Shown: positions 577 through 64,000 of the stretch, one piece after another
Layout of the letters: every line of letters begins with the position of its first letter
Numbering within the stretch: position 1 is the stretch's first letter
Assembly: GCA_905178155.1 (NCBI GenBank)
Contig: CAJINV010000010.1
Coordinates: forward strand, 1,819,182 to 1,883,181
Direction: 5' to 3'
Source of the DNA: Amoebophrya sp. A120
Taxonomy: Eukaryota > Protista > Dinoflagellata
DNA: 64,000 bases
Made by a program: the position numbers and the translations under genes
Notes under the pieces: model-generated
The model's database searches: none
Told to the model about the DNA's origin: nothing
The model's input: the letters and a program-made list of their open reading frames with translations, nothing else

Positions 577-3500
577 CTACACCTCTACCCTCGCCAATCG
601 CGTATGCCAGCCGTGGGCAGCAAAATACTTCTCCATCAGTTCCTCCGCGGCTGCCTTGTACCCTGAAGCCGCTTTGTCACCACTCAATTTCGCCGCGTGC
701 GCAAGCAACTTCACCTGCAAACGCGAAAACGCAAATTTTTCTTCGTTCATCCCCGGGATCGTATCCAAGAAAAAAAATTGCGTTTGTGAGGCAGAAATGA
801 ATGCAGAACAGAACTACACGACGACGACACTTTTCGTGCAAGACAGCCCCTGCCCCAGACTCCTCTTTTCTTCATCACATGTGGTTACTTTAAAACATAG
901 GCTAGCTACGCTTTTCACAGAACAAGTTTGTCATGCTGTTCTTGCTGTCAGCCCAGTAAGAGCGTTACACTAGCACAGTTCATTTTTCTTGGATAAACGG
1001 GGCCAGGGAAGGTTTTCGGGGGCTTCTGTTCCAGCCAGTGGCCGGGTCTGAAGGACGAAGAAGCTTTCGGCTTTGGCACTTGATGTTGCGCGGAGTTATT
1101 CAGAACGGAGGTGGATGCTGCTGCTGCACCAATACGTCCTCGTGGAGCTGGTGCACCTCCACCACCTGCTGTCGTTCTTGGAACTATCTTGTCGGTGAGC
1201 AAAACATTCCGCAGTATGTCGGGTTGCAAATGCTGTTTCCGGAACCTCCGTGCTTGGTTCAAAAACTTGGTCGGGCGGATTCTCGAGAGAGAGGTAGTGC
1301 TGGCGGAGTTTGCTTTAGTACTATAATTCGTTGTGGAATTTATTTGGTGAAGATGCTGGTCGTGCTGCTCCAGAGCGGGCTCGTGGAGGTGCACGACAAG
1401 GCTGTCGCTGGTGTCACCCTCCACCATCTCCACCGCAAGATGCGCAAAGTCTTCCAGAAACCCGGTAATTCTCGGCACCGGGGTTGCGAAGTACATGTCT
1501 TCAAAGACCCGCTTCGCGTGGATATTGTGGCGACTGATCGAAGGAGTTGTCAGCTCCCCAAGGCTATGCATTTTTGCAAAAGTCCCGCAATCGTAGTGAT
1601 TGCAGTCATGGATGACAGATCTATTTTTGTACGCTAACCAGCAACATTACAAATTCCATTTTTCACGCTGACCAAATTTGTAATGCGAGGATTTGAACTT
1701 CTACTAGTACGATACTTTTGCAGTGGATAAGCTTCGTCCATCTCCAGGTCTAGATGATCCAGAAAAATCTTCCCCTCCGCCCCAAAAATCCCCCGCAGGA
1801 ATCCTTCCGGCAAGAGCCGCAGGGGTAGGAAAAGAAGATGCTTGCGCTTCTCCTGCGTCAGTTTCTGTTTCGCTTTCAGGAGCGTGGCTGTTTTGCCGAT
1901 GTTTGTCATGTCGCCAAACAAGCTGGCTGTGCGTGACGGAGAAGCAGAGTCGTCTTGTTGTGCTGGTCCTTGCTGGTCAATCGTTACCATTTCGGAGATC
2001 GCGGAAGAAGAAAACGGACTTCCCGCCCTCAAGAAATGCTCCTTGTCCTTCCTTGTTGTGTTCCCTATCGCTTTATCAAATGTAAAAATGTCTGGGTGTG
2101 GAAGATTCTGAGCCTTGTCATGCATGTTTTGCATGGGCCGCAATGTCTGTGATGCACGCCCTAGCATCACAGATTTTTTGAGGGCTTCGCGATGCCTATT
2201 CCGCATGACAAATGCCCTCTCCGCGTACCAAAAATTACATTCCCTTTGCTGCTCATGCAATACAGATTTTTTTGGAATCCAAATTCAGCATCACAAGTTG
2301 CATTCTTCCAGACCCAGACATTTTTACATTTGATAGACTTGCGCCAACGACTCTGCTGGATGGGGCTCCAGTAACCTCCGGATGTCGTGTATGAAAGTGC
2401 ACAAATCCCGCCCCCCCTCATTTGTCATGCAAAATCCCAAATGCAGGCTCTGCCTCTTGGCTCTGTTTGCATGACAAGCTCTGGTAGCTCAAATAGCACT
2501 ACACAACTCCAGTGTCAAAAGATTAACATTTGCCATGCAGAACCGAAACTCTTGCTGATGCTTGTATTGCCGTTCATGCTACACAAATGCGGGCGAGGGG
2601 GAGTTGTGCACTGTCACATCGTGCGAGAGGTCTTCCCGATTAACCCCGAGTTTGCTGGTTTGCGAGTCGAAATTCAAGTCCTTGAAGAGCGCCTGAGTCT
2701 TGTTCCCGATGGCGTTTGGATATGAATCCGCAGACGCGTGGTCGTCCTATCGTACTACTAGTAGAAACTGCGATACAAACTTCTTCAGCATTACGAGTTT
2801 GCCATGCTGATTTAGCTTTAAGAAAAAATAATTTTATGATGCATGATTGTGATTCTAGTACGAGTACGATGCCACATAAATTGCTGCGCCGGATATTGGA
2901 ACGCCTTTGCCAAAATGCCGCCCCGGGATCATCACGTAGTCTTCGAGGGCTTTTTCGTGTGTATCCTATGTAAAACAAACGTCCCCACCCCACAGTTGTC
3001 ATGCAGATTTGCATCTACAGGAACATCTGCAATGCGCATCCGCATGAGAGGACTTTGTAGTGATGTTTATGAGATTTGTAATGCTGTGAACAGGATGAGC
3101 ATGCGTCTTTGTGATGCGGCTGTCCTTGACAAGCCCGACTATACTACAGATGGAAACTTGTCATGCATAACTCCCAAAACTTAGAGATTTGTGTTGGAGA
3201 TTTACCAACTTCACTATGGTGTCGGCGGGACGTTTTTTCACAGGATAGTGTGGTTCCCGGTCCAGTGCAAAAACTCCGCTGTCCATGTTTTTCTCCGCTT
3301 GGAATGAGTCGATCACTCGAGCATCACCAGATAGATCACCCGGCGCTTGTCCTGCCCGTAGTCGAGGGCCTGCAATCGCAGTTTGCTCGCTGTAGAGGTC
3401 CTCTGTTGCCCGAATATGATGTCCTCGTGTAGTTTTTAGCGTGACAACTGCACGGTCGCGATCTGGTCGTCCTGACGAAGTTTTTGTTGCAGGGTCTTCT

Positions 3501-6500
3501 GCGTGGTGCGGAACACCAGCAGACTTAGCAAACAAATTCTTGTCGTTCATCCAGAGGAGAGGGCTGGTGGTCCGCTTGTTTATGACCACTTCCCTGGTGG
3601 ATCGTTGTTCATGAGACTGGTCAAGAACTACATCCGTATTTTTCGCATCAGCAACTGCAGGCTCAGCGCCTCTGCTTTTGCTTTTTCCCCCTGCTGGTGT
3701 TCTTGCTGTAGTTGGTGTTGGTTTTATTGCCGCCTCGACGAGGCTGCTTTTTTTGTGGCGATGATGCACTTGGAGCTGCTCCGTACTGGTTCTACTACTT
3801 GTTGTACTTTTTGCAACATCTCCAAACATCAGCTCGGCACCTCGTCCAGCATCTTCTCGTAATCCAAGCAAGTCGGCTTGTGTCAACAAGAAGCTGGTGC
3901 CCCCGTTCTTGCCGGGCGCACCAGATCTTCTCGTAGCTCTAGCTGCACCTCCTCCGGCTACGACGACGCCATCCACAAACCCACGTGATTTAGCTGCAGA
4001 AGAAGAAGTAGGAGAAACAACTCCTGCTCCTCCGAATCGATTGTTTCTACTGTCATCTTCTACTCCACGCGGGTCGTCGTCGTGGTGGAGGTCGAGAAGA
4101 AATTTCTTCTCGACGCGGCTTCTCAACTCCAGACCGCGATCGATCCTGCCTTCCCCGTATGAGTTGCAAAAGTGTCCGGGTCTGGAAGATTCTAAACTTG
4201 TAATGCTGTCTCTGGATTCTAAAAAAAATTGTATTGCATGACAAGCAAGAGGGCTCCAGTTTGTGCTACGCGGAGAGGGCATTTCTCATGCGGTAGAGGC
4301 CTCACAAAGTCCTGTAAATATCTGCGATGCTAGGGAATGCATCACAGACGTCATGGATCATTCAAAATATGCATGACAAAACTCAGAATCTTCCAGACCC
4401 AGACATTTTTGCAGTTGATACTCCGTCTTCGCCTTTCCCTTCCTGTTTCATCACATCGAAGTAGGATTGGTAAGAGCCTGGCTATGCAAGACAAATTTCC
4501 CGCACATGTACAAGATGCATCAAAAATTTCCCCAATTTGGAGCTTGAAGCTTGTCATGCTAAACCAGGATCGAGGCCAAGTTTTGCCATGCAGAAACCGC
4601 ATTTTTACGTGTACAGGAAATTTACTGTGGATACTGGTGTCTTTGGATTGGGCAACCGGATGTCCTCGTCAAAATCGTCGTCGTCTTCAGGTTATGCATT
4701 GCAAAAGTATAATCGTCGTACAACCAGCCGCAATTGCGTTCACGACTTCGCTCAGCACGGGGAATTGCCTACGATGGAACAAATTCATTTCATCTGTCAA
4801 GCATGATTGCAACTCCCACGAGCAGAAGTACGATAAAATTTTGCACAGGATAGCAATACACCTTCTCCTTCTGCGCTTTGCTTGTCGTTGTAGAAAAGCA
4901 GCGGCGTCCCAGCAGCGGCCTTGGCACTTCTGGCGTTCTTGGCGGAAGCGTCGTTCTTGCTCGGTTTGGTATCCTCTACACCGCCTTCCCCGACCAGCAA
5001 CCGCTGCCCGTCTTGGGAAGTAGAGGTAGCACTAACATGATTGCTAGTAGATGATGACTCTAGAAGAAATAACTTCTCGCCGATGATTTTTTGGCTCAGC
5101 TTCCAGTCAAGTTGACTGCCGTTCTGAAAAATCGCGGGCATCTTCAGGTGGTGCGGGTTTTTGTTGGAAGGCAGAGACGAGAAAGAAGCAGATGAAGAAG
5201 CTGTAGTTCTTGATGCGCCACTTTCATGACTGGTCGCGTTCTTATTCCCCGACACGCCACCTTCTAGCCGTTTCAGTAGGTACTTTTTCAAGTGCTCTGA
5301 CATCACAGAGGACAGCCTTCCCAGGCCCCACGTCACAATCGCGCGAAACCACCTGCTCGGGCCCGACTGCACGTAGTCGTGCGGGTTCGGGATAGTTTTG
5401 CTAGCATGGAGTTCTTTTGGAAAGTTGTAGGATAGTTGACGTAGTTGCGTCTGCTCTGATGTATCATCTTCCCGCTGCGAGTTCTTCTCCTCTTCGGGGT
5501 TGATGTTCGAGAAGAGCGAGCTATGTCCAGCCGCATCCACTTCTTGCAACGGCACTTCGACGTCCGCGATGCAGGATTGGAAGTCCAGAAGAAACAACCA
5601 CACCCGCAAAATTTGGAGTGCGTACCAGGCAATCGGGGTGGTTGTTGTGCCAAAGGACGGTGAGTTGATGTCCTCGCCAGGGTCCATTTTTTCGGAAGAT
5701 GAATTTGTCGTACTCGATATAGTTTCCGTGGTATCGTGCCCATATCTTCCAGCGTTTATTTGGCTTTTTTTTTCATCATCGTCGTCGTGCGCCAACCATT
5801 TCTCCAACACAGCCAAAACGTGCAGCTCGACTCTGACGAATTGCAGACAGTAAAACGCCACAACTTCTTATGACAGTGCACAACTCCCCTTCTCCCTCAT
5901 TTGTATAGCATGAACAGCAATACAAGCATCAGCAATAGTGCCGGTTTTGAATGACAAATGTACACTGGAGCGTGGTGCTATTTGAACTACCAAAACTTGT
6001 CACGCAAACAGTGCCACAAGGCAGCGACTGGATTCGGGGTTTTGCATGACAAACGAGGGGAGGGGGAGTTGCGCACTGTCACACTTCTTCCAGCAAGTCT
6101 TCGCATCCGATCTGCAATTCCAACAAAAAACGTTTCTCCAACGTTTCCAGGAGGTCACGAAGACGAAATGGGGAGTGGAAAAGATCATGGGCGGCGGGAT
6201 AATCTGCACCTCGCGACGACGAGGAGGAGGACCGCTGGTCTGCCTGTTTGAAGGGCTCTTTGTTCGGTAGCTTTCGAGCGTACGTATCCAGGCTCCGACG
6301 GCGGCGGGCAGAGGAACTTTCATTAAACAAGCCCCCCTCGGTCAACACCTCCCCACCTTTTTCCTCATCGTCCCGCTCGTCATCTGTGACAAGCAGCGCC
6401 AATATGATACTGCACAACCCCCCCTCCACCTCATTTGGAATGGCACAAATAGCAATACAAGCGTCAGCAAGAATGCAGGTTTTGCATAACAAATTCATTC

Positions 6501-7497
6501 ACTCACATTTGTACTGCTGTTTGAGCTGCAGCCAGAACTTGTCATGCAAAAAGTGCCAGGAGGCAAAGGATGCATTTGGTACTTTGCATGACAAACGACG
6601 GGATGAGGGGAGCAGGTTGTGCACTCTCATAGCCAACACAGAGTTGAGCAAAGCCAGCCGATCCTCGACGGAGTGGGCCTCCGTGTGGTACTTCTTCGTG
6701 TATTCCAAGGCGTAGTGGAGATGCTCGGTCGGGAAATCTGCCTCCACGCCGAAGCCCCGCTTCTTCGCGATGTTCGCCCTGATTCTAGCCGCAACCGCGT
6801 GCACGTCCAGGGCCGGCGCGGATGATGAAGAAGAAGTTCTTCGCCTCGCAGGTGCGGAAATAAATCCGCACCTCTCGTGGACTTGAGACGTCACGTCAAT
6901 GTGGTCACGACTGGTGATATGCATTGCAAAAGCATCGTACTAGTATAAATAACTGCATCACAAATTATATTTTCCTCAAGAACAAATAGGGAATTTGTCA
7001 TGCTATATCAGGTGGAAAGTATAGATTTGTCATGTATGACGAGTGCGATACTTTTGCAATGCATAGGCGAGCAAAGTTGCTGATGTTCTCATTCCCGTTT
7101 GCAGCTGGCCTCCGCGTGTTTTCTTTCCTGCCGACAACTGCGGACGAGAGAAGACGTCAAGGAAAAGTGTTTCGGCGTTGAGAGTGTCATCACCTTCACC
7201 GCCCCATCGACCTACTAGTAGAACTGGGTCAAGAACAGGAGCATCGCCGAGAGCAGGAGCAGCCCCTTCGATTCCCATATTCGTTCCCGCCGATGTTCCT
7301 GCTACGTCGTGGAGCCGCCCGAGCACTACTTCGCGGAGCCTCCTTTCCAACCTTGCTTCGCGCTGCTGGTCAAATATTGGGCCGGGATGGTGTAGGAGAT
7401 GCCACGCACCAGCATATTTGCTCCCGCCCCCGCCCGCTGCGTGATGCCGTTCTTCTTCTGGTTCGAACTTGAACAGTGCGGGCCCGAAAAAGTTCAC
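577..7497 (-). CDS. Large low-complexity hypothetical protein, 13 exons split by 12 introner introns
   Basis: All 12 junctions join in frame when element+5 nt is removed; stop at 577. No ATG at the 5' end, so it is probably continuous with 7862-9272 via GT-AG intron(s) (GTAAGT donor at 7920, TAG acceptor at 7509). Confidence 0.75.
762..995. mobile_element. Introner (singleton family)
   Basis: TIR TATCCAAGAAAAA/TTTTTCTTGGATA; TSD decayed; frame restored. Confidence 0.75.
1565..1729. mobile_element. Introner family B
   Basis: TIR TAT..TGCAAAAGT; TSD decayed; frame restored. Confidence 0.75.
2074..2335. mobile_element. Introner family A
   Basis: TIR TATCAAATGTAAAAATGTCTGGGT; TSD CGCTT/GACTT. 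Confidence 0.9.
2390..2618. mobile_element. Introner family C
   Basis: TATGAAAGTGCACAA...TTGTGCACTGTCACA; perfect TSD TCGTG. Confidence 0.9.
2721..2895. mobile_element. Introner family B (degenerate)
   Basis: TAT...ATA ends; perfect TSD TTGGA. Confidence 0.8.
2962..3247. mobile_element. Introner family D
   Basis: TATCCT..AAACGTCCC TIR; perfect TSD GTGTG. Confidence 0.9.
4158..4420. mobile_element. Introner family A
   Basis: Family A TIR; TSD CCCCG/CTCCG. Confidence 0.9.
4483..4633. mobile_element. Introner (singleton family)
   Basis: TAT..AAATTTCC imperfect TIR; TSD CTGGC/CTGGT; frame restored. Confidence 0.75.
4693..4852. mobile_element. Introner family B
   Basis: TATGCATTGCAAAAGTAT...GCACAGGATA; TSD decayed; frame restored. 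Confidence 0.8.
5869..6083. mobile_element. Introner family C
   Basis: Family C TIR with ACA end; perfect TSD CTTCT. Confidence 0.9.
6403..6631. mobile_element. Introner family C
   Basis: Family C TIR; perfect TSD GCCAA. Confidence 0.9.
6918..7065. mobile_element. Introner family B
   Basis: TIR TATGCATTGCAAAAG; TSD GGTGA/GGCGA. Confidence 0.9.
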
Positions 7498-7861: not shown

Positions 7862-9272
7862 CTATTCATGCACTATTGATAGATAATTTGTTCTCCTGAT
7901 TGTTGTATGGGTGCACTTACTTTTGTGTCGGATAGCGTTGATACGTCGAAGAAAGTCTGCCTGGGTTATAAACATGCTTCTTGTCATCTCCTCCTCCTGC
8001 TCGAGAAAGTCACTGGGTGGGGCGTCGTCGGGAAAAATTGCATCTTCATCGGTGGAAATCTGCCCCCCGTGCCGCTTCTGGCTGTTTGATATTTCCCGTT
8101 GATGCAGCTTGTTCTGCTCCTGGCCGCTGGTGTTACCAACCACTCGAGCAGGTGGCAACGCCCTCATTTTTCCAGTTTTCGTACTAGTTTCCTTGGTCTT
8201 CAAGAAGACGACCTTTCGGCACAGGACGCTGCAGAGGGCGCGTATGGATGTGTCAGAGTTGAAATCGACAAAGTTGAAATAATTTGTCATGCATAAAATG
8301 GATGCCAGTTGGGACCCAGTTTCCAAGTCAGGCAAGACAAATTTCGGTGGTCCCTAAGTCCACTTTGTCATGCTGTTTAGGCAAAGAAGAGCGATTCTCT
8401 CATGCTACTTTAGCAGCTCGAGCTGTAACCCCAAACAGGCTTACAATCGGCCTCACTTGCCTGCTCTGCAACACACGTGCCTCAGGTCATGCATTTTATG
8501 CATTACAAATTATTTCAACTTTCACGATTTCAAACCTGACACTTCCATAGCGCGTGGTAGGAAGTCCTGGATATTAAATTGCGGGGTTAGCTGGTGTATC
8601 CTGTGCAAAAGTATCGTATTCGTATAAATGCAAGTCTTGCATTACAAATCTTTGTCTTAAGGCAAATCTGCATTACAAATTTTCTTTCTCATGCTGAAGA
8701 AATTTGTAATGCATTTATACGAGTACGATACTTTTGCAATTCATATGGTGGAGCGAAGAAGTAGAGTTTGTCATTGTCTTCTGTCCCGGCGAATAAGAAG
8801 AAGTTGAAATAAACAACGCTCGCGGCGACCAAACGTGTCGGTCCAGATTCAAGCAAAGCTTTTCCGCGTGGGAAAACGTGAACACCGTGCCATATCAAAT
8901 GCAAATGTGTCTGGGTCTGGAGGACGATGGCGAGACTTGTCATGCAGGCTTTCCATGGCCCATGAGGTCTGGCATAGAGCATCTAGCATGACAGATTCTG
9001 TGAGATCTCTATCATGCCTCTCCCGTGTGAGAAACTGCCTCTATACTTGTTCAGAAGCGGACAACTTTTATTGCTGACCATCAAAGAACGCAAATTTTTG
9101 CACGATCCAGACTTGGCACGACAAGTTGCAACCTTCCAGACCCAGACATAGAATTTGTAATGCATATCCCACCACCCACAGCCAAATCCCAGAGCTGCAA
9201 TTTCTCTTCCGGAAGCAGGGGCCGGCCGATGGCCGCCTGGAGCGAAGCGTGACGGGAAGACGAGAAAGACAT
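7862..9272 (-). CDS. Hypothetical protein (MSFSSSRHASLQ...), 3 introner introns; probably the 5' part of the 577-7497 gene
   Basis: ATG at 9272; removing the three elements +5 nt gives one continuous frame (..AVGGGTVFTFSHAEK..LTPQFNIQDFLPRALCSVLCRK..). Confidence 0.7.
8243..8549. mobile_element. Introner family F (diverged)
   Basis: TIR TATGGAWGTGTCAG; perfect TSD GCGCG. Confidence 0.9.
8597..8745. mobile_element. Introner family B
   Basis: TATCCTGTGCAAAAGTATCG; perfect TSD TGGTG. Confidence 0.92.
8893..9166. mobile_element. Introner family A
   Basis: Family A TIR; TSD TGCCA/TCCCA. Confidence 0.9.
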
Positions 9273-10530: not shown

Positions 10531-11702
10531 TCAAATCCGCCCGCCGTCTTGTCGCTGGGTCGTCGACGGAAAGCCGCCGCCTGTCTGTTCTACCGCAACG
10601 TCAATCAAGTCGTCGTCGTGCACGACTATGCAGTGCAAATATGTAGTCTCAGTAGTCACTTGTGGAAGATGAAGCAAGCAGATGGTTGCCATGACCACAT
10701 CGACTTCTCTCGTCGAGGATGTTTGTAATACATGGCATCTCCTAGCATCAAAGATCTTCTTCCACCGAAGGCTTGTTTTAATCTCTTTTTTAATGCGTAC
10801 TATCCGGGTCGTGCATGAGAAACGCGCCTTCCATGTTGCAGAAGCCAGGCTGTTTCTGTATCTCTTGCTGACACAAGAATACAGATTTTTGGCATTGTCC
10901 AAAGCTAGCATCACAAGTTGAAGTTTGCTCTCATCTTCCAGCACCAGATTATACATTTGCATTGCATAAAGCCGAGCGCATCCGGGGTGTCGTTTTCGCC
11001 CACCCGCTCCCCATCGACCATAAAACGCACCTCGCCAATGCGCAGGCTATGAGACTGCACAACCAGTTTACCTCTTCCTCCGTTGTCATGCAGAAACGCA
11101 ATGATGTATGACGATTTTTTCGTAAGTACCCGGCGGCTACGTGCTGTTTGTCATGCAGATGCTATATACTGAACTGATACTGATTCTGTCTGTGTTTCGC
11201 TTGTTCGTGCCTGCTTCTTCAGATGACATCTTGATGGTTTGAGGGGAGAGATGAAACTACTTCTACTTGTGCACTTTCATAGGTGCCGATCCGCTGGCAG
11301 TAGGCCTCCATCAGTTTTTTCAAAGTCGAATGCTTCTTGATCTTGAAGGACACTTCACCGCCCGTACTGTTCCGCACCCGCAGCTTATGAGAGTGCACAA
11401 CTCCACCTTCTCCTGATTTGTATTGCATGAACAGCAATACAAACACGAGCACACGTGGAGCCTGTGGATGACGAATTGACATTATTCGTGCGCCTAGTGT
11501 AGTACTGTCTGGGGTTGTTCCGGATGCAAAGAATACAACAAGGAAGCACTTGGATTTGGGCTTTTGCATGACAAATGATGCGGAGGGGGACGAGTTGTGC
11601 ACTCCCATACAGCTGAATGTGCGTGGGCCCGCCGGCGCCAGCGTCCGGGTTTTCCGGGGCGGCGGCCGCCGCGGGAGAACCAGAGTCCTGGTCGTCGGCC
11701 AT
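10531..11702 (-). CDS. SUMO: Small ubiquitin-like modifier (SUMO), 4 exons
   Basis: Spliced product ..HIQLRVRNSTGGEVSFKIKKHSTLKKLMEAYCQRIG..RIGEVRFMVDGERVGENDTPDALG..DDDLIDVAVEQTGG matches SUMO/Smt3 motifs including QTGG. Confidence 0.93.
10627..10968. mobile_element. Introner family A (degenerate), SUMO intron 3
   Basis: TATGCARTGCAAAT TIR; TSD decayed; SUMO frame restored. Confidence 0.8.
11048..11281. mobile_element. Introner family C (degenerate), SUMO intron 2
   Basis: TATGARA.TGCACAA TIR; TSD partly decayed; SUMO frame restored. Confidence 0.8.
11386..11609. mobile_element. Introner family C, SUMO intron 1
   Basis: Family C TIR; perfect TSD CAGCT. Confidence 0.92.
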
Positions 11703-46021: not shown

Positions 46022-48441
46022 TCACATGTTCCAGCCCGCAATCTCACAGTTCGCGAAGCTGCGGCCCCCCTGCAAGTGTACCGGAGACACCTTGACACTC
46101 CTCTTGTTCTTTCCGTCTAATGCGAAAAAGGCATCGAGAAACCGGTAGTGCGCCACGATGCCTATTTTCTGTTCCTGGAAGTTTACGGTCGCTTCAAATT
46201 TCGCCATGTTATCACACAGAAAAAAGCAGGCAGGTCAAATTTGTAATGCAAAAATAAATAAACAAAACAATCTGTCTTGCATGTCCTAAACAGCACGCTA
46301 GGGCGTTGCCCATGACAGATTTTTCTGCGTATTTATTTTTGCATTACAAATCTGCCCTGCCTGTTTTTTTCTGTGGGATACATGTACTCGGATAAAAACT
46401 CCTTCGTTTTCTCTGCTCGCTTATCAAAAGCAAAAGTGTCTGGGTCTGGAAGAGTCGTGCTGTTTTTGCATGACGCAGAAGGTGTGCCATGGAAGCTCTA
46501 GCATCTCAGGTTTCACGAAGCGTTCGCAATGCCGAATCCGCATGGCAAGTCCCTGATTTTGGTGACAGAAAGGGGGCATAACTTTTGCTGCCTATGCATG
46601 AGAGATTTTTCTGTGTTCTGAAATGCGCATCACAAGTTTGTATTCTTCCAGACGAGACCCAGACATTTTTGTAGTTGATACCGCTTCATGGTGTCAAAGT
46701 AGTCTTCGAACGGATGGGGGACGACCTTTTTCGTCTCTATCCCCTGAAAATTCACCATCCCCATCCAGTTTGTCATGTAAAACATACATAAAGTCCTCAG
46801 TTTGTCATGCACAAAGTGGATGGGAATGGGGATGGTTAATTTTCACGGAATAGTCTCTTGCAGAAACGTATTCGCTAAAACGTTATCCTGCAGCGTCGTG
46901 TCCGTGAAATGCTTTACGTTCGACAAATCCGGCTTGATAGCGCAATCATCTTCTTTTCGAAATCCGTACAGGACTGTTGATTCTTTGCCATTCGCGTTTT
47001 TCTCGTAGTCAGCACCAGCAGCAGTCGGAGTGGTTGCACTAAAAATGCCGGCTGGTGCCGGGGACCCAGGCCCAGCTGATGTTCCGTTGGAGTTGCAGTC
47101 CGGATCTTCGAATTCCTGTAGCGCCGACTCGTGCCGCTTCTTGTTCACAATCTCCTTCTCCAGCATTTCGCGTTTTTCCCCGTTCAGGAGTGAGCGCAGA
47201 ATCCAGTAATTCTTTTCCAGCAAGTCCTCCTCGAGGAGCGAAAAATCAAAGTCCAGATCGCACTGATTCTTCGTTTTGGAGCTGAACAAAAACTTCAGCC
47301 TCTGCGCGTAGTCACAGGGGATCCCGTCGGTGTAGCGAACCCACTCCCGAATCATCGGAAGCACGACGAACTTGATTTTCTCTCTGCCCGGATGGTTTTT
47401 GAACAGACTGTTGCAGGTTTGCAGCGTTTATCAAAAGTAAAAATGTCTGGGTCTGGAAACTTGTGATGCTGGGTGGCGTCTCATCATGAGGCTACAAATG
47501 CTGGCTCAGCATGACAAGTTTTTGAGCTCCTAGGTGTTGCCTATTCTGCATGACAAACTGCGCTTCTGCATCACAGACAAGCGGAGCTCTTGGGGAACGT
47601 GCATGACAGATTTTAGAGTCATGCCAGACAAGCATGACAAACATGAATTCTTCCAGACCCAGACATTTTTACAGTTGATAGCGTTCGCCTCAGGGGGGAG
47701 ACGAAAACCGTGTGGAAATCTACGTTTGCCAACAGATGCGCCCGCTTTTCCGTCTGGAGCACACCGTAGGGGTGCAACGGGCAGTCGACCAGGGACCTCG
47801 CGGTGCCGATCTTCACCGTCATGCGCTGCTCGAAACTTTCAAACGGCTATCCTGTGCAAAAACGTCCCCACCCCAGAGCTGTCATGCAAATCTGCATGCG
47901 AAAAAAGTTTCGCATGCGGAGCCCCATGAGAACCGTTTATTTTGCAGTCGTGTTTTGGCATTTGTCTAGCAGATTTTCCATCTTGACTCTGGTGCAGGGA
48001 CGTTTTATTTACTCAGGATAACGGCTCCTGTTTCCTCAGTTTGTACTTGTCAAAAAACTTCGGCAATTTAGAGGCCATCTGGGCGTAGTTTGCGCAACTA
48101 ATCGCGTGGCGCACGCAGATGACTTTCGACTTCTCCACGTCGGTGCAGGGCGTATTCGTGCCGAAAGCGTTTTCCAGAGTCGGTTCATAATCGAGCAGCT
48201 CCTGCATCTTGGTAGCGAGACACTGTTCCACAAACTTTCGCGTGTCGTGGTCTTCATCCGTTTGCTTGTTGAGGTAATTGTTGTTATCACCGGAGGACGA
48301 AGACGCTGCTGGTGCAGGTGCTCCGCCTATAATTGCGCCCCCAGACGACCCGGAGGCATTTTTTGTCGTAGTTTCTGGTGCTCCCATGTTGTTTTCGTTC
48401 TGCTGCGGGGAAGACTCACTATACGTGCCGCCCATGACCAC
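46022..48441 (-). CDS. Histidine phosphatase / phosphoglycerate mutase-like protein, 6 exons
   Basis: VICVRHA, VFVSPLRRTL, LPMIRE, IGIVAH, FANCE motifs; 5 introner introns. Confidence 0.88.
46210..46380. mobile_element. Introner (singleton family, long TIR)
   Basis: ~50-bp TIR TATCMCACAGAAAAAA..GCAGG..TTTGTAATGCAAAAATAAATA; perfect TSD CATGT. Confidence 0.92.
46422..46680. mobile_element. Introner family A
   Basis: TSD TCGCT/CCGCT. Confidence 0.9.
46738..46852. mobile_element. Introner (singleton, smallest: 115 bp)
   Basis: TIR TAT.CC.TGAAAATT.ACCATCCCCAT; perfect TSD GTCTC. Confidence 0.9.
47429..47680. mobile_element. Introner family A
   Basis: Perfect TSD GCGTT. Confidence 0.92.
47848..48020. 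mobile_element. Introner family D (short derivative)
   Basis: Perfect TSD ACGGC; resembles 58513-58792 with an internal deletion. Confidence 0.9.
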
Positions 48442-50087: not shown

Positions 50088-50525
50088 CTACGCTCCCCAG
50101 GCAGTTGTACTTCTGCTCTTCCGTGGCATCTCATCGACTGGGACGATCTGGTCCAGCCGCTGTGCCGCCTTCGACGTCTGCGATGGGGACGACAATCGAG
50201 ACGACGACCGCGATGCCGAGGATGGCCTTTCCGCATTGACGCTGCCCCACCCCCGGAAGTGCCGCCGGCGCGGGGGTACGATGCCCCATAGCGATTCTTC
50301 TTGGGGTTCTCCGTCCTCCTCATCGCCCGTATGCGTAGTTATTTCGCTTTTCGGTTTCTCCTCCGTCCCCTTCGGGACTGTCTTCGCCGCCGCCTCATTC
50401 CCTTCCTCTTCCTTCGCCTCGTTTTTTCCGGTCTTCATCACCAACTCCTTCTCGTTCTCCAAGACGGAGGTCTGTGTGTGGTTGCGGTCTATTGTGGAGC
50501 GAATTCTAGTAATCGCCAAGGACAT
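50088..50525 (-). CDS. Possible small hypothetical protein or gene remnant
   Basis: 145-aa charged low-complexity ORF, GC-richer than its flanks; no motif. Confidence 0.3.
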   Translation of the reverse strand: MSLAITRIRSTIDRNHTQTSVLENEKELVMKTGKNEAKEEEGNEAAAKTVPKGTEEKPKSEITTHTGDEEDGEPQEESLWGIVPPRRRHFRGWGSVNAERPSSASRSSSRLSSPSQTSKAAQRLDQIVPVDEMPRKSRSTTAWGA

Positions 50526-53692: not shown

Positions 53693-56600
53693 TCAAAAAC
53701 AAGAAATACGTTGATCACGAGCTGCAGCTGCCCCGGCAACCTGCTCCTGCTGGTAAAAACGAGTAGCAGATTCATGTTGGTCCACATGATGGCGCTGTTG
53801 ATAGTTTTCGCCGCCACATTGCTCAACTTGTTCACGCCGACATGATGTTGATGCGCCAGCACTACTACCTCCTAGCCAGCACGATTTCCCCTCCTCCAAA
53901 ACTTGTTTTTCCAATTCTGGTATCAAATGTAAAAATGTCTGGGTCTGGAAGAGTTATGCTGTTTTTGCATGACACAGAAGGGGCGGCATGGAAGCTCTAG
54001 CATCACAGGTTTCGAGAACCTTCCGCAATGCCGAATCCGCATGACAAGTCCCCTATTTTGCTGACAAAAAGTGGGAGCTTTTGCTACGTATGCATGAGAG
54101 ACTTTTCTGTGTTCTGAAATACGCATTACAAGTTGCATCCTTCCAGACCCAGACACTTTTGCATTTGATATCCGGATTTTTTTCCAGTACTCCCTCTTCC
54201 AGATATATGTAGTCAAACCGGAAATCTTGCTTCAACCGCTGGCGCCAGGCTTTTTCGTGGTCGAAGTAGCGGTAGTCTCCCTTCTCAAATTCACTGTTGC
54301 ACTCCCTCGGCTCCGACTCCCGCTGAAACCAGAGATTGTAAAGTTTGTGGTAGCGCCAACCCAATTTTTCCAGCTGCGCCGCGGCCAGCAACTGGTCGTG
54401 GCTGTTTTTTTGGTAGTAGAAAACGAAGAAAAGCGTGTCCAAATCGTATTTCTCTTGCTGATATGCATGGCAAAAGCATCGTGCGTAGTATAAATCGCAT
54501 GACAAATTTCATCTTCAAGAAGAAAATGGGAATTAGAATTTGTAATGCAAAATTAGGTACGAAAGTAGATTTGTCACGCATGCCTGCACTTACTAATAGT
54601 ACGATACTTTTGCACTGCATAGCTGAAAATGCTCCTTCGTGAGGATGTTTTGCGGGATCCTCGGCTGAGTCGACGGGTACAGATGCTGGGGCTGCTGGAT
54701 CAACATCGCGCTTGTTGTCCTTTGTGCTGCCTGCTGCTGATGCATTGGAAGATTTGTAGAACTTGCGGTGTGGGTGTAGGGAAACCTGATGGATATGATC
54801 ATGAAAATAATCGTCGTGCGAACCAGTCGTCTGAAAGGGGAAGTTCTTTCGGAACAAATTGAAAAAATTTTCGAGATTTTATAGATAGAATGTGCACGAC
54901 AGGACCGGAGAATCTTCATAAAGTGGAACTACAACATACGAACAGAAATAGCTACCAAGAAGTCTACCAAGGGTAGTATCGGGGGACGGGCATATGGTTT
55001 TCGGTAGAAGCACTCGGACGGACCTTGGAGGTGGTCGCACTCGCAGCTTCGTTTACGAAGACTTGTCGCCCCTTATCATGAGCTTCTCTGCCGCAAGAGC
55101 TGCCACGTCGGAGTCCAACATCTTCCGCTCCAGCATTGTTGAAGACAACGGCCGGTGCATCACGCATGTCCACGTCACGTCGGGAGCTGCCAGGAACTCC
55201 TCGTCCTCCACTGGTGCGCCCACCATACTCTGGCCCTGGCGCCGCATTTTATGCATTGCAAACATGTCTGGGTCTGGAAACTTGTAATGCATGGCTGCGT
55301 ATTGCAGTGCCACTGCAATACGCAGCCGTGCATGACAACGTTACGTATTCCACATGACAAAGTACGTTTTTGCATGAGCATGACAGGTAAGATTGCCTTT
55401 GCGCGGCTATGCAACACAGATTCTCGAGTCATGCCAGACAAGCATGACAAAAATGCACTCTCCCAGACCCAGACACATTTGCAATTCATACATGTCGTCC
55501 GACGACGACATCCTGCTCATCCCAATCCTGTGCAAAAGTATCGCATTCGTATAAATGCAAGTCTTGCATCACAAATTTTTTTCTCAAGGTAAATCAGCAT
55601 CACAAATTTCATTTCTCATGCTGAGGAAATTTGTAATGCATTTATACGAGTACGATACTTTTGCAGTTCATAATCCCAATCTGAATCCAACTGAAAATCG
55701 TCCGAGGAAGTGTCCGACCCCGAGTCCGTTCGGAACACTGGATCCGCCGCGAGGTCCTGTTCCCAGATGATATCGGGATCGGAATGGAGGGTGTCAGTTA
55801 GGGGCGACGAGGATGCACGCGGGGCGGCGCTTTTTGATTCGTCGCGTACGTGTTGCTGCTGATCGTAGTACAACTTCCTCGCGCAGAAGTGGTCTTCCTG
55901 GTGGGCAGTACCCCGCTCAAGAAGGTGCTCGCCCTCGACGTTGTGCTGAGAGTTGATGTCCTTCTCCTTCATGTAATACAACCCACTGCCCGTTTGTCTA
56001 CTTTGTGTGACGGCTTTATGGCGACCCCCTGTAGTTTCCTCCGTACCTCTTCCTCGAACACGAGAGCCATCGCCTTTGCTTTTATCCCGTAGGAAGCCGT
56101 CCTCGTTGTTCTTTCTCACCTGCTCTTTGTAGTCGCGATGCTGTACTGTACTCGCAGTACCGCGAGGAGCAGGACCCGGGTGATCATGCTGATGATGTTG
56201 ATTCGTCGCAATAAACATGGACTTGGTTCGCCTCGTCGAGTAGCTGTCATCGTAATCGAGCATACTGTGCAGACTCAAAATCTTCGGCTCGGAGAAGGTT
56301 TTTGTCGTGCCAGCAGCGTCGAGATTTGTCTTCACGTAGTGGTCGACGTCGACGACGTTCTTCGTGCTAGATGAAAAATGCTGCTTGCTCTTATTTTCGA
56401 AGTAGCTCGCATGCCCAGCCTGAAACAACTCGAATTCCCTCTGGTTTTTGCAGCGGAAGAGCAAAGATCCGGATCCGGGCCGCTTGATTTTTTCTTTGTC
56501 GGTGTTTTCTTTAACGTCGACCGGAGCTGCAGTAGAGGACGAACTATTTGCTGCAATTCTATCTGGATTCATTTCTGCACTTGCTGTGGAAGTCCTCGCT

Positions 56601-59600
56601 CCTGCTGCGCCTGGGTCAGCAATACCTTGACGTTGACCTTCCTCGTCCGCGGGAAGTGCTAGAGCTAGACCGTCGTCGTCCTCCTCCTCTCCAGTTTTCT
56701 CATTCTGCTGTCCTGTGGCCGGTAGTTCTTCCACCTGCTCTTTTGCTGGCTTAGAAGCTGCATTTTTCCTGTGCAGCTCCTCCCTTGCAGCTGCAGTGGA
56801 GCAGAACTGCGCGTGTCCAGAGGTAAACAGCTCGACCTCGGCGGGGTTTTTCAAGAGAAAAATTGATTTTGGGTTGGTTTCCGGGCTCGTGTTGAAGGTT
56901 TTTTCAATCTCTTTCAAACGCAATTTCAGCTGGTTGTGTTTCTTGTCTTTTTGCTGAACAATGCGAGCAGGAGGGTTGATACTATTTTCCGAGGTGGCCT
57001 GCCTTAGGTTTTCCTTTTCAGCTTCAGCGTCCGCTGCTGCAGTATCAATGGCAAGTCCTGGAGCACCTCCGCTGCTTGTTGTATGTACGCCAACAGGTGG
57101 ACCTCGTCCAAACGAACTACCCTGGTCGCCAGATGTACGGTTTTTGCCACACAACGACGACGAAAAATCTTGTGGATTTTCGACATTTTTTGCTTCCTGG
57201 GTACTAGAACTAGGAGCACCAGCTGTGGTAGTCCTCAGAGGTAGCGCCACGGGGATGACGTCAAAAATTTTGGAAGAGGAGTTGGCTGTCGGCCGCGGGT
57301 GCCTCAGATTGTTTGTAGCGACTTGCTTCTCGAACATCGTCCCTGGCGGGGCAGGGGGAGGAGCACCTCCACCTCCTCCCGCACCAGCATCAGATGTCGT
57401 AACATTTTTTTCCAATATCTTAGTTCCGCTCGTCGTAACGCCCGCACCCGCTCCGTTTGAAGAAGAAAATACTGGGTTATGCACCGCCAAGCCTTCCTGT
57501 ACGAGCTGCTTCTCGAGTTCTTGGTGGAGCAACTCTCGGTCGCAGAGCGACTGCAACCGCTTCCGTTCCTTTTCCTGCGGAAAGAGGACCTGCAGTTTCA
57601 CGATTTATCAACGTGCCAAATTCAGCATGCTCTACGAAGCAACAAATCAAAATAAATTCTCAAACATGAGGGTGAAAAATTTATTCCGTTTCAACATGAT
57701 CTTCATTGTGCTCAATACGCTACTTTTAAGCCAAACGATCACTACCGGCGACACAGTTTCCGGTAGCAGCTTTTGTAGCTCCAAAACTGAGGGTGGTCGT
57801 GATTGTCTCGGATGCAATAGAGGGCCAGTCGTCCTCATCTGCGGGTCTGTTCCGTTGTACATGCCCTGAGGGTGGATATGGTCATGCCCCCGCGGCAAAG
57901 TAGGATCGCCCGTCTGTAGTCCAAGTCCACCTTGCCCAACATAATCTGGTCGCGCCGGTCGTGCTGGTGCAACACCCCCACGACCTGGCGGCTGCCCAAA
58001 ATTGAGCGCCGGGAGTGGGGGCGGAGTGGTTGAGTTAAAAGGGTAGGAGGTCGCGCAGCCCCCGCGTTGGTGGAAATTTTGTTGTTCGAAAGAACTTCTT
58101 GTGTGATGATGTCCCCTGCTGGAAGGAACAAAGGGACGGGGACACGGGCCGCCTGACAAAGGATCAATTATAGGTGGACCACCACCAACAGCCCGCTGGT
58201 GCATATCAAATGTAAAAACGTCTGGGTCTGGAAGATTGCAACTTGTCATGCTAAATCTGCAGCATGCAAAAATCTGTGCTGCATGATTACCAAAAGTCGC
58301 CCAATTTTGACCAAGTCGGGAGGTAGTTTCTCATGCAGGATAGGCATTAGAAAGGTCTCGCAGAATCTGTCATGCTAGCTCCGGCATTCCAGACCTCATG
58401 GGTCATGGAAAAGCAGCATGGCAAATCGCGCATTCTTCCAGACCCAGACATTTTTACACTTGCTAGTGCATCTTCGCCTCTAATTCCGCAGGCGTGGGGA
58501 TTCTCATCGGAGTATTCTGAGTAAAAACGTCCCCACCCCAGAGTTGTCATGCTAATCTGCATGCTGAAAATGTTTCTCATGCGGAGCTCCATCAGAAGCC
58601 TTTTCTAGTCGTGTTTTGGAATCTGTCATGCTCCAATCAGCATGACAGACTAGATCTGTGATGCTGCTCAAACTAGCTAAACAGGATCACACTATGAGGA
58701 CAGACTTGTCACGCGAAACCACCAAAGCTGGCTGATTTGTCTAGCAGATTTCCCATCTGGACTCTGGTGTGGGGACGTTTTTGCTCAGGATATGGAGGCT
58801 GCAGGTACGGCGGGGCGTGACTACCACCTCCCTGCGAACGCCTTTGATGGTCCGGCACCGCAAGTTCGGGGGGCGGGGAGGTGATTTCGTTGCTCTTCGA
58901 GTAGTATCCTGTGCAAAAGTATCGTACTCGTAGTAATTGCAATCATGCATTACAAATTTCTTTCTCAAGGTAAATCCACATGACAAATTTCTTTTCTTAT
59001 GCTGAGCGAATTTGTCATGCATTTATACGAGTACGATACTTTTGCAATGCATAAGTAGGGATAGTTGTGGTGGTACTGTTGCTGATGCTGTTGATGCTGC
59101 CCCTGCCCGCCTCCTGCAGCTGCAGTAGCAGGTGGCGGCGCATGTTGATTCATGTTCCAGTTGTTCCCTGCTTGGTGATGGCTTTTCAAACATCCACCTG
59201 CAGAAGCTGTTCCGCCCAAAGTGGAAGTGACAGACCCGGGAACGGACGGACTCATGGACAGTTTCCGAATCGTCTCCAGCTGCACATACAATGGCGGCTT
59301 TTGGTTCAGGGGCGGCGGGGGAGGGGCGCACTTCGGCGGCGGAGGGTGGGAATGATAGGACGAGTTGTAGGACTGAGTTGAATGGGTATGATGTTGACCT
59401 CCAGTTGTGTCTTTGTCGAACGACGAAAAAGTTTTCCCCCGTGTCTGCCGCGGACTCCGGTCGCACAAACTCGTTCCACAGTCATCGAAGTGGGTCGAAA
59501 GGGAAATTTGCGGCTGGAGCTTCGGATCAACGTCTTCTACTTCATGCGGATGCGCCTGAAGATTATCATATTGCAACTCGGTTTCTTGCTCAAAAATTTT

Positions 59601-61033: not shown

Positions 61034-62215
61034 TCACGCCCCAGTTCTCTGCTGCGTCGTCGCTCCCCCGCCACCTCCGCTACTTTGATTCGCCACGTTC
61101 AGATACGGTGTGGGGTCGAATTTGTCCGGGGAAAAATTGGTGCAGTACTCGTTAATGCCGAACATTTTGATCACTTTTTCCAGAATGTACGGGTTCCGAT
61201 GGTCGCTACTCTTCATGACCGCGTCGTTAAAGTGCTTGCCCTGGGCTTTCAGCGCGAAAAACTTTTCTACCCTTTCCTGTAATTGCGGGTCCGGCGACCC
61301 TGGCGGGGAGGGGGGAAGCTTGATGTGGTCTAAATTATCGATGTAGTTTTCTACTTCCTGCTGTTCGTCCAGAGTGGTCTGGTGCGGGTCTACTACGGCA
61401 AAGGATGCAGCAGCAAGTTTTTGTCGCTTGTGCGAAGGCGTGTTTTCTACTACCGACGGCGGTGGTGGTTGACCTCCCCCTCCTGCAGCATGAGTAGTAG
61501 AGCCGTTTTGATTGAAACTTTTAGCACTCTTGCTGGTGCCTGTAGCTGCGCCATTACTTCTTGTGGTATTAATATTTTTTCCTCCTTTAGCATGTGGTGA
61601 AACACCCTCGTCGCTGTTTTCGGACTCTGGGGAGCGGATCAAGTCTTCCCGGGGAAGATCCCGCTGTTGTCGCTTTAAGTTGTTCATATCGGCCGTCGCG
61701 TTACTAGCCGTACTACGACCACTCGGCGGTGCACCAGCTGCCAGAGTACTAGGCTGCCGCGCAGCAGGAGGAGCAGCCTGCTCTTCTTCCTCCTCTTCTT
61801 CTGGTGTCATGACCACCACTTGCTGCATATGAAAGCCTCAGGTTGGAAATCCTCAAATTGGAAATAATTTGTAATGCAAAAAACGACTCCAGTTGAAGCG
61901 CCATTTGTAGTCGGCGCATGACAAATTTCCCGGGCGCTCAAAACGTGTCTGTCATGCTAGTTAGGCAAAGGGGTAGCCTTCTCTCGTGCTAATCAGCACT
62001 CCAATTCTTAACCCGTAGCAGGACAATAGTCGGCTTCCATTGCACCCTCTGCAATACAGTCTTTTTTGCGTCGCATTTCATGCATCACAAATTATTTCCA
62101 CGTTGAGGATTTCCATTCTGAGGCTTTCATACTGCATCGCTTCTTTGGTCAGGGGCTTGAGCTTCGGGTGCTTCTCCACCTTGTCGCTCTTTTCTTCGTC
62201 GCTGGACCAGTCCAT
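61034..62215 (-). CDS. HCNGP / SAP30-binding protein-like, 2 exons
   Basis: LPPSPPG..LQERVEKF...HFN......HRNPYILEKVI..FGINEYCTNF....FDP is the HCNGP signature; exon 1 MDWSSDEE. Confidence 0.85.
61828..62131. mobile_element. Introner family F
   Basis: TIR TATGAAAGCCTCAG..TGGAAATCCTCAA; perfect TSD CTGCA. Confidence 0.93.
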
Positions 62216-63349: not shown

Positions 63350-63828
63350 CGAGTTCGACGCGAATGGGTTGTCCGCACTGGTCGCGTTGCTGTTGCTAAT
63401 TCCGGCGAATCCACCGCCACCGCCACCACCGCTCATCTGTCGACCCCAAGAACCGTATGAAAGCCTCAGAATGGAAACCCTCAAAGTGGAAATACAAATA
63501 ATTTGTGATGCATGAAATGCAAGGCAAAAAAGATTCTATTGCAGAGGACACAATGGAGACCGACTGTTGTCCTGCTAGGGGTTCAGAATTGGGCTGCTGA
63601 TTAGCACGAGAGAAGGGCACCCCTTTGCCCACCTAGCATGACAGACATGCTTTGAGTGCCCGGAAAATTTGTCATGCGCCAATTAAAAATGGCGCTTCAA
63701 CTGGAGTCGTTTTTTTGCATTGCAAATTATTTTCACTTTTAGGATTTCCAACCTGAGGCTTTCATACACCGCCGCTGCTTGATCCACCGCCACCACCGCC
63801 CCACTGAGGAAGCTTACTCACGTTGTTG
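63350..63828 (-). CDS. Partial Gly-rich protein (internal/3' exons; gene continues beyond the window)
   Basis: ..KLPQWGGGGGGSSSGG / WGRQMSGGGGGGGFAGISNSN.. join in frame across an introner; gene end not resolved. Confidence 0.5.
63456..63766. mobile_element. Introner family F (inverted relative to 61828-62131)
   Basis: TSD AACCG/CACCG. Confidence 0.92.
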
Positions 63829-64000
63829 TGTCAAATGTAAAAATGTCTGGGTCTGGAAGATTCTGAGACTTGTGATGCATGTTTTGCATGACCCAGGACG
63901 TCTATAATGCACGCCCTAGCATCGCAGATCTTTAGAGGGCTTCATGATGCCTACTCCGCATGACAAGAAACACCCTCCCCGCGTAGCACAAACTAGACTC
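63829..64000. mobile_element. Introner family A (TGT end), truncated by the window edge
   Basis: TGTCAAATGTAAAAATGTCTGGGTCTGGAAG; body resembles 15570-15823. Confidence 0.85.

Follow-up and report, generated by a model that had tools for sequence, protein, structure and literature searches.

Why should short repeats that differ from one another along most of their length all carry the same small word, and what in the cell might read it? The question is raised by a 64,000-nucleotide stretch of contig CAJINV010000010.1 of the dinoflagellate Amoebophrya sp. A120 (GenBank assembly GCA_905178155.1, positions 1,819,182 to 1,883,181; here called the window). It is packed with elements of 115 to 342 bp that begin with TAT and finish with ATA. 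Their inverted ends measure about 20 to 60 nt, and on either side of each lies a 5-bp direct repeat whose sequence varies. A first-pass annotation had reported that an 8-bp motif, TGTVATGC (GCATBACA on the opposite strand), recurs in both orientations through otherwise unrelated element families and is rare in exons. It proposed a shared cis code, either multicopy transposase-binding sites or sites for an RNA-binding factor that replaces the splice-site consensus. We conclude that the motif is a shared, nonrandom cis feature confined to introns. Its layout is held in common by about ten sequence-unrelated lineages, which is new here. The data comprise the 64-kb window and 14 kb of related metagenome loci, and the 50 element copies analyzed are drawn from a reported total of about 30,000.

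An internal motif common to transposon-like introns

The curated set of 50 elements totals 11,365 nt, with ends loosely set in five. Families A (16 copies in four subfamilies), B (12), C (6), D (4), E (3), F (2), G (1), and H (2) are accompanied by four single elements. All 50 have inverted ends. The two copies of the 5-bp target-site duplication (TSD) match perfectly in 30 elements, with one mismatch in 12 and with two in 4; the 4 that match less well are among those with loosely set ends. Across the 100 element ends, positions 1 to 3 are T, A, and T in 95, 93, and 93 cases, respectively, and positions 11 to 13 are A in 80, 91, and 91, a terminal pattern (TAT, seven nucleotides, A-run) that occurs in all families.

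Such elements are known from this organism. The text of Farhat et al. 2021 (PMC7789003) describes A120 introners with ends composed of TAT, seven variable bases, and at least three A, with direct repeats of 3 to 5 nt and inverted repeats able to form hairpins; noncanonical introns are put at about 240 nt, genes run in one direction, and U1 small nuclear RNA is reported as not found. Elements of the sister strain A25 begin with TTA. The window elements agree with that account in their TAT/A-run ends (including the seven intervening nucleotides), border repeats in the 3- to 5-nt range, hairpin, length, noncanonical borders, absence from mature RNA, and single gene direction. In Gozashti et al. 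2025 (PMC12130899), families found among 22 of the 58 A120 rows of Dataset S2 include ones of about 149, 160, 252 to 260, 278, and 305 bp, classed as "TIR DNA" (terminal inverted repeat [TIR]) with the superfamily given as unknown. These lengths match our families B, H, A, D, and F/G, respectively, and duplications of 4 to 5 bp are listed there where detected.

Removal from RNA is seen directly at three joints in contigs of runs X1 and X4 (28755 to 29010, 30035 to 30262, and 30643 to 30799), each of which omits an element together with one copy of its duplication, and contigs of the DNA-type run X5 cross element borders uninterrupted. The RNA nature of X1 and X4 is a tool's guess backed by this element-skipping pattern, and intron borders beyond the three joints are mostly inferred; a raw RNA run from 2026 (X8) placed only 4 reads on the stretch. 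Scripted removal of the 50 elements with 5 bp each yields minus-strand frames of 1200, 1020, 746, 526, and 495 codons, the longest before removal having been 915. One X1 contig record demands 341 exonic nt within 32592-33336, the exact remainder after removal of GT-AG introns at 32664-32914 and 33184-33336. For 37205-40377, the exon sum is 1329 nt and the contig record gives 1357, so one inferred border there is off. The elements are miniature inverted-repeat transposons, with TIRs and TSDs, that are removed from RNA as introns.

Sequence relationship among the families is slight. When 15 groups were compared by blastn, any high-scoring segment pair (HSP) was found in 19 of 105 group pairs. 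Full-length similarity is limited to the four A subfamilies (A1 to A4) and to F with G; the other HSPs span 17 to 52 nt, and the motif is present in at least some. In addition, the single element at 10627 (S10627) aligns with the right-hand part (108 nt) of an A1 copy, and B and D have in common a 42-nt module with two motif copies. The claim that the families are otherwise unrelated thus holds for most of their sequence, but not for their terminal pattern, 5-bp duplication, and motif layout. Because these three are common to all families, the roughly ten lineages, alike only in these respects, are one superfamily.

The motif itself is confirmed, and the case for it is stronger than the first-pass annotation had put it. 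Both strands of the window hold 154 exact matches; 100 dinucleotide-preserving shuffles gave a mean of 7.22 (standard deviation, 2.79; maximum, 16). With strands collapsed, the commonest 8-mer of the window is GCATGACA (n = 85), ahead of poly-A (n = 36). The count of roughly eight exact or near copies within one family A element is borne out by the figures for 15570-15823 in Table 1. When the T variant is included, the variable central base of 157 copies is C in 85, A in 35, G in 34, and T in 3. Conservation extends beyond the core as A-A-R-Y-T-TGTVATGC-W: among the 154 exact copies, the base directly 5' is T in 121, the next one out is T in 107 and C in 36, successive positions farther out are A in 92, 83, and 75, and the base 3' of the core is A in 78 and T in 51. 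The full 12-base motif is AARYTTGTVATGCW. A position weight matrix (PWM) of 13 columns, applied at a cutoff of 10 bits, finds 214 sites in the window against 6.05 ± 2.5 in 20 mononucleotide shuffles. The curated elements hold 188 of the 214, with one to six per element and no element lacking a site.

By compartment, 135 of the 154 exact copies lie in the 11,365 nt of elements and 19 lie in another 42,759 nt, mostly in other introns. There is none in the 9,876 nt retained in RNA-type contigs, which bears out the earlier impression that the motif is rare in exons. Composition does not account for the abundance, as Markov simulations of element sequence produced 3.2 copies at order 1, 4.2 at order 2, and 11.7 at order 3, far from the 135 observed. 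Enrichment in introns with depletion from exons, as expected of sites for intronic RNA-binding proteins, is therefore a property of this motif. Near long open reading frames (ORFs), there are no motif sites in 17442-24077, 40327-46241, and 49378-53966.

Layout and variation of the motif

The sites occupy set positions. The first site lies 30 to 38 nt from the terminus at 31 ends and 40 to 48 nt from it at 46 ends, which together make up 77 of the 100 ends and include families A, B, C, D, F, G, and H as well as single elements. Neighbors in the same orientation are 31 nt (23 pairs), 32 nt (7), or 33 nt (10) apart in 40 of 85 pairs; convergent pairs cluster at 46 to 48 nt, and divergent pairs cluster at 17 and 35 nt. 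The 18 to 20 nt between two sites differ in sequence from family to family, and site position and spacing are nevertheless kept across families with differing ends. Both the 31- to 33-bp spacing and the 10-bp difference between the preferred end distances are consistent with whole turns of the helix, whether of DNA or of duplex RNA. Several copies inside both ends, as in subterminal transposase-binding repeats, are thus present here in the form of 188 sites in 50 elements with TIRs and TSDs.

Some element ends are themselves close to the motif. At 10 ends, in family B and part of A, TAT is followed by GCATTGCAAA, which agrees with the motif at 9 of 10 positions, and the right end of the element at 8893-9166 is TAT followed by an exact GCATTACAAATT. 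Such ends would be anticipated were a single DNA-binding domain to recognize the terminal as well as the inner sites. As a separate matter, an inner copy that follows TAT can be mistaken for the end of an element, as at 8497.

A metagenome scan requiring three direct motif copies returned 116 loci, of which 109 were tandem repeats or chance matches in unrelated DNA. The other 7 are contigs of one record with 15 elements of the same families, in which spacing is 30 to 33 nt and end distances are 32 to 47 nt; having been selected for three motif copies, they support the layout, not the enrichment. They match the window through their elements only, with no orthologous copies among them.

Variation was measured against subfamily consensus sequences in 41 copies from eight subfamilies; the other 9 (F, G, H, and the single elements) were left aside because their groups do not reach three copies. 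The nine fixed motif bases diverge at 97 of 1619 positions (6.0%), the terminal 30 nt at 222 of 2439 (9.1%), and the spacers at 866 of 4836 (17.9%), so the fixed bases are three times less variable than the spacers (odds ratio, 0.29; P = 4e-36; columns defined from the consensus may slightly favor conserved ones). The degenerate base within the same sites diverges like the spacers (35 of 181, 19.3%). That the motif is a shared cis feature, as first proposed, is supported by this low variation and by the position and spacing kept across families. The divergence pattern alone would be the same under selection on source copies or on resident copies.

Candidate readers of the motif

The reading that we favor, and to which we give about an even chance, is that the motif copies form an array of putative subterminal DNA-binding sites for a mobilizing protein, probably a transposase, and that all families have them in common because one superfamily depends on one kind of reader. 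In this scheme, one transposase or a few related ones would bind the terminal TAT and A-run together with the inner site array; the 5-bp duplication hints at an integrase-like enzyme as a candidate, and in favor of the scheme, Gozashti et al. 2025 (PMC12130899) describe integrase-like ORFs within TIR elements of A120, reported for family 38. Sites about three helical turns apart (31 to 33 bp), the first at about 33 or 42 bp from the end, would pair the two ends for cutting, the role that subterminal repeats play in Ac/Ds and En/Spm and that end sites play in Mu and Tn7. The motif would be kept in the families since only source copies that bear it still move, and it would decay freely after insertion. 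Removal from RNA would be guided by other features, for example, the long fold-back of the element, and the link of the motif with introns would simply follow from the origin of almost all introns in this DNA from elements of this type.

We lean toward a reader of DNA because the motif has no orientation bias, because G.U mismatches are no commoner than A.C, because the motif decays at about the rate of the duplications, and because some ends are near-motif. The genes lie on the minus strand; relative to their transcripts, 98 sites read sense and 90 read antisense, without the sense orientation typical of intronic splicing enhancers. Sites point one way only in 12 of the 50 elements, antisense in 7 and sense in 5. 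Isolated mismatches in the fold-back arms, read on the RNA-sense strand, are G.U in 22 cases and A.C in 22; selection on an RNA hairpin should favor G.U, and the equality leans toward DNA.

For decay, the two copies of each target duplication offer a clock. Across the 46 elements in which three or more of the 5 bases match, they differ at 20 of 230 sites (8.7%), or about 4 to 9% per copy since insertion. By this measure, rough as a clock of 230 sites must be, the fixed motif bases (6.0%) decay at about the postinsertion rate, and the excess variation in spacers and at the degenerate base would then reflect differences between source copies. The first-pass annotation had itself held that decay at the neutral rate in old spliced copies would refute a role in splicing, and the rough clock lends little support to that role. 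Thymine at the variable base (3 of 157) is about as frequent as expected from 6% decay alone, and to us its exclusion suggests a clash of the methyl group on DNA. Of the two roles first offered, then, the evidence leans to multicopy transposase-binding sites, on the strength of TIRs and TSDs, fixed subterminal distances, and near-motif ends.

A number of observations weigh against this preference. No transposase was found by Pfam among 12 unspliced long ORFs of the window, and there is no autonomous element within its 64 kb. The text of Farhat et al. 2021 (PMC7789003) reports that no transposase was found in A120 and argues against transposase-mediated movement. Motif orientation relative to the ends differs by family, being mostly inward but outward at both ends of B. 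The decay comparison is weakened by the small clock, by elements picked in part for good duplications, and by a sample of 50 copies.

Other points in the same direction concern RNA. In predicted folds, motif cores are paired at 79% of bases and spacers at 62%. The variable base forms Watson-Crick pairs in 18 of 31 paired copies against 9.3 ± 2.4 after shuffling (a figure inflated by relatedness), and RNAalifold finds one pair in family B that is U-A in 5 copies, G-C in 2, G.U in 1, and broken in 4; complementarity of this kind suggests that hairpin formation matters. Family A is skewed 13:3 in orientation relative to the minus-strand genes (e.g., 14008-14259 and 31457-31721 against 4158-4420, 26246-26505, and 58204-58465), the corresponding ratios being 4:0 in D, 2:0 in H, and 7:5 in B. 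The skew in A suggests either that removal from RNA succeeds better in one orientation or that insertion is biased, and some asymmetry at the RNA level accordingly exists.

Finally, of the seven GT-AG introns that lack inverted ends in the two genes with RNA support, six carry the motif, some at the same 31- to 32-nt spacing. These seven, whose borders are inferred in five, and a further intron at 4430-4630 are unrepeated in the window, and they would fit a transposase-binding array only if they are decayed or single elements. In the intron at 4430-4630, an end resembling those of D and B lies 7 nt inside the GT, and the sites follow a pattern like that of B, with 1 of 4 still exact; this intron looks like a decayed element, in keeping with neutral decay rather than maintenance.

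The strongest alternative, which we regard as doubtful though serious, is an RNA-level intron signal: a factor that recognizes the sequence in RNA, or that reads it in double-stranded RNA stems, would flag the inserted element as intronic and help position cleavage at the foot of the fold-back, substituting for the missing recognition of 5' splice sites. Confinement to introns, the GT-AG introns just described, the low variation of the fixed bases, and the pairing of cores all speak for it, as 36% of core bases pair with another core; the constant end distance could serve as a ruler, and the text of PMC7789003 gives more than 60% of introns as noncanonical, with U1 not detected. The balance of sense and antisense sites is harder to accommodate, since a reader of single strands would miss many introns, those of the one-orientation elements included. 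Parity of G.U and A.C and decay at the duplication rate likewise argue against it, and selection on source copies alone would equally leave the motif little varied within families. The GT-AG intron at 33184-33336 (no PWM site) and the D element at 47848-48020 (one site) manage with little or nothing of the signal. The RNA-binding factor proposed in the first-pass annotation thus finds little support, except that six of the seven GT-AG introns do carry the motif.

A more specific form of this alternative, which we think unlikely, makes the motif the cis code of intron recognition independent of splice sites: a factor would read AARYTTGTVATGCW, in stems or on the DNA template, at a set distance from the fold-back base and would direct exact removal of the element with one duplication. 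If this is true, coding sequence could accommodate transposons by the tens of thousands, with no GT-AG borders, in a cell for which U1 is reported missing.

An improbable third possibility is that the motif is a structural building block. The ability to fold back would be what is selected, in single-stranded DNA during movement or in RNA, with stems made by repeated inverted duplication of a unit of about 31 nt and the sequence incidental. Elements of about 250 to 280 nt do form near-perfect long hairpins (-97 to -120 kcal/mol), and the core-to-core pairing, the preferred distances of convergent and divergent pairs, and the tendency of paired variable bases to complementarity are in keeping with it. 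Motifs in one-orientation arrays (six copies in D, three in H, and four or five in A4), however, cannot pair with one another, and 64% of core bases are not paired with other cores. The same nine fixed bases recur in lineages with otherwise different stems, where structure alone would not hold sequence, and T is excluded at the variable base though it would pair equally well.

It is highly improbable that the motif is a chance survivor of one ancestral element without present function, as the terminal pattern, the 5-bp duplication, and the B-D module would allow, because sequence between motifs is beyond blastn detection in most of the 105 pairs while nine bases, spacing, and end distance are kept, and because neutral survival would not leave the degenerate base at 19.3% beside neighbors at 6.0% within one site.

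Several known signals were considered and set aside. Pumilio sites (UGUANAUA) differ in register, RBFOX sites (UGCAUG) fit only the G variant of the complement, and the branch-point consensus does not fit; the lack of sense bias in the motif also speaks against all three. Transib or RAG-like ends, an idea prompted by the 5-bp duplication, were set aside too, as the ends start with TAT and not CAC. Rfam gave no matches at gathering scores.

Related systems, neighboring features, and significance

Subterminal arrays are familiar from plant transposons. The AAACGG hexamers of Ac/Ds and the 12-bp TnpA sites of En/Spm occur in many copies and both orientations within 100 to 300 bp inside each inverted end, are needed in cis for movement, and are bound by a protein that the element encodes. 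The likeness here lies in a short motif in many copies and both orientations inside inverted ends, with binding putative; the difference is that the present elements are only 115 to 340 bp long, with the interior filled at a regular 31 to 33 bp, that one motif serves about ten families with differing ends, and that the elements are introns as well. In phage Mu (L1 to L3 and R1 to R3) and Tn7 (TnsB sites), which are bacterial, each end has several transposase sites of about 22 bp, the terminal one included, and the ends are asymmetric. Some element ends here are near copies of the inner motif, in line with the analogy to Mu and Tn7 drawn in the first-pass annotation.

In Euglena, the parts of Nomura et al. 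2025 (PMC12501133) that deal with nonconventional introns describe them as abundant and lacking GT-AG, with ends that pair and a CAG-CTG code near the borders. That code sits at borders and acts in RNA, whereas the present motif is internal, multicopy, and indifferent to orientation.

As to A120 itself, the text of PMC7789003 describes only terminal inverted and direct repeats, with no family-specific motif and no mention of an inner motif, its 31- to 33-nt spacing, or its end distance (this applies to the text, not to figures S19 to S25), and the words "subterminal" and "binding site" are absent from the main text of PMC12130899. A description of the inner motif was not found in the text or supplement text of PMC7789003, nor in the available portions of PMC12130899 and a 2024 review (PMC11282704). 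In a full-text literature search for the motif string, the matches listed were only unrelated primers or short hairpin RNAs.

The elements and the GT-AG introns are collected in Table 1.

Table 1. Elements and GT-AG introns of the window (window coordinates; TSD values are matching bases between the two copies; "sites" are motif sites)
Feature	Coordinates	Strand	Observations
Family B element, ends approximate	1567..1729		3 sites; aligned with B copies
Family A element	2074..2335		TIR 24/24, TSD 3/5; 6 sites
Family C element, ends approximate	2391..2617		3 sites
Family D element	2962..3247		TSD GTGTG 5/5; 4 sites, single orientation
Family A element	4158..4420		TSD 4/5; 5 sites
GT-AG intron without clear TIR, bounds inferred	4430..4630	-	PWM sites 4486, 4517, 4552; spacing 31, 35 as in family B
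Family C element, ends approximate	5871..6083		3 sites
Family C element	6403..6631		TSD GCCAA 5/5; 4 sites
Family B element	6918..7065		TSD 4/5; 3 sites
Family G element, related to F	8243..8549		TSD GCGCG 5/5; 3 sites; F-G HSP 305 nt
Family B element	8597..8745		TSD TGGTG 5/5; 3 sites
Family A element, right end an exact motif copy beside ATA	8893..9166		TSD 4/5; 3 sites; terminal TATGCATTACAAATTC
Single element, related to right part of A	10627..10968		TSD 3/5; 2 sites; 108-nt HSP to A1
Family C element	11386..11609		TSD CAGCT 5/5; 2 sites
Family A element	14008..14259		TIR 30/30, TSD ATGGA 5/5; 6 sites
Family E element	14943..15266		TSD TCCCG 5/5; 3 sites
Family A element, example of the first-pass annotation	15570..15823		TSD CTCTG 5/5; 5 exact and 4 one-mismatch copies; RNA fold -119 kcal/mol
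Family B element	17361..17510		TSD TCTTC 5/5; 3 sites
Family E element	23939..24260		TSD ACGGC 5/5; 3 sites
Family D element	24319..24597		TSD ACGTA 5/5; 6 sites, single orientation
Family B element	26015..26163		TSD AGGTG 5/5; RNA-type piece stops at 26009; 3 sites
Family A element	26246..26505		TSD CGTTG 5/5; 5 sites
Family B element	26562..26706		TSD CAAAG 5/5; 2 sites
Single element	26890..27100		TSD 4/5; 2 sites
Family E element, ends approximate	27152..27470		4 sites
Family H element	27735..27898		TSD GATGA 5/5; RNA-type piece restarts at 27899; 3 sites
Family A element, RNA removal seen	28761..29009		Pieces 27899-28755 and 29010-30035 adjoin; 6 sites
Family C element, RNA removal seen	30041..30261		Pieces 29010-30035 and 30262-30643 adjoin; TSD GCTCG 5/5; 3 sites
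Family B element, RNA removal seen	30649..30798		Pieces 30262-30643 and 30799-31451 adjoin; TSD GTTGT 5/5; 4 sites
Family A element	31457..31721		TSD AGCAC 5/5; RNA-type piece stops at 31451; 5 sites, single orientation
Family B element	31763..31902		TSD 4/5; 4 sites
Family H element	32121..32281		TSD TGCTG 5/5; 3 sites
Family A element	32335..32591		TSD CCGTG 5/5; 5 sites
GT-AG intron without TIR, unrepeated in window	32664..32914	-	Sequence bounds and 341-nt record sum; exact copies 32783, 32853
GT-AG intron, alone among the seven in lacking a PWM site	33184..33336	-	Sequence and record arithmetic; one-mismatch copy at 3' end only
GT-AG intron without TIR, upper bound inferred	37205..37392	-	Contig piece stops at 37204; site 37357
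GT-AG intron without TIR, bounds inferred	37610..37790	-	Sites 37645, 37688, 37694
Family A element	38093..38348		TIR 35 nt at 94%; TSD 4/5; 4 sites, single orientation
GT-AG intron without TIR, bounds inferred	38563..38722	-	Sites 38656, 38687, 31 nt apart
Family B element	38791..38942		TSD 4/5; 4 sites
Family A element, left end decayed, ends approximate	38965..39266		5 sites
Family C element	39354..39573		TSD CCTTG 5/5; 3 sites
GT-AG intron without TIR, bounds inferred	39880..40129	-	Site 40028
GT-AG intron without TIR	40263..40377	-	Contig piece starts at 40378; sites 40294, 40326, 32 nt apart
Single element, mirror-symmetric layout	46210..46380		TSD CATGT 5/5; sites 32 and 63 nt from each end
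Family A element	46422..46680		TSD 4/5; 2 sites
Single element of 115 nt	46738..46852		TSD GTCTC 5/5; 2 sites, 32 nt apart
Family A element	47429..47680		TSD GCGTT 5/5; 6 sites
Family D element, short	47848..48020		TSD ACGGC 5/5; 1 site
Family A element	53921..54170		TSD 4/5; 5 sites, single orientation
Family B element	54462..54621		TSD GCTGA 5/5; 3 sites
Family A element	55250..55490		TSD 4/5; 5 sites
Family B element, starts AAT	55524..55672		TSD ATCCC 5/5; 4 sites
Family A element, ends CTA	58204..58465		TSD GTGCA 5/5; 5 sites
Family D element	58513..58792		TSD 4/5; 4 sites
Family B element	58905..59053		TSD AGTAG 5/5; 3 sites
Family F element	61828..62131		TSD CTGCA 5/5; 4 sites
Family F element	63456..63766		TSD 4/5; 4 sites
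Family A element, truncated by window end	63825..64000		Repeat-covered interval; sites 63871, 63958

The two F copies face each other 1.3 kb apart, and their inner parts (61878-62097 and 63496-63715) form a 220-nt inverted repeat at 89%. The interval between them, 62093-63494, has apparent TAT...ATA ends and a matching 5-bp flank, probably a by-product of the near-palindromic F sequence. Several of the GT-AG introns without inverted ends finish in TATCAG, and the next exon begins with GTAA.

Elsewhere, the window has a GC content of 43 to 55% and is eukaryotic in sequence. Pfam matches among the 12 long ORFs are a 2OG-Fe(II) oxygenase domain (E = 6e-11) in the long exon 41664-44411 on the minus strand and an HCNGP-like domain (E = 2e-23) in the minus-strand exon 61034-61837; otherwise, there is only a subthreshold match to DUF6184. 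The 720-codon minus-strand ORF at 18280-20442, which has no Pfam match, contains internal repeats at 18579-19890. At 21855-22411, in a stretch with no motif sites, CCCGTAAATTCCCTGTAAATTCC units form satellite-like inverted arrays with T/A runs on their flanks. The 2.4 kb at 34750-37204 lie in one RNA-type piece with no ORF of at least 130 codons and no motif site, and are possibly an untranslated region or a transcribed spacer between two co-oriented genes.

One motif with constant spacing and end distance over about ten families with differing ends points to a single trans-acting reader, for which the motif itself is a concrete bait. It is also a simple computational marker for introns of this kind in gene prediction. 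More broadly, the finding bears on what moves A120-type elements and on how they are cut out of RNA when normal splice sites are lacking.

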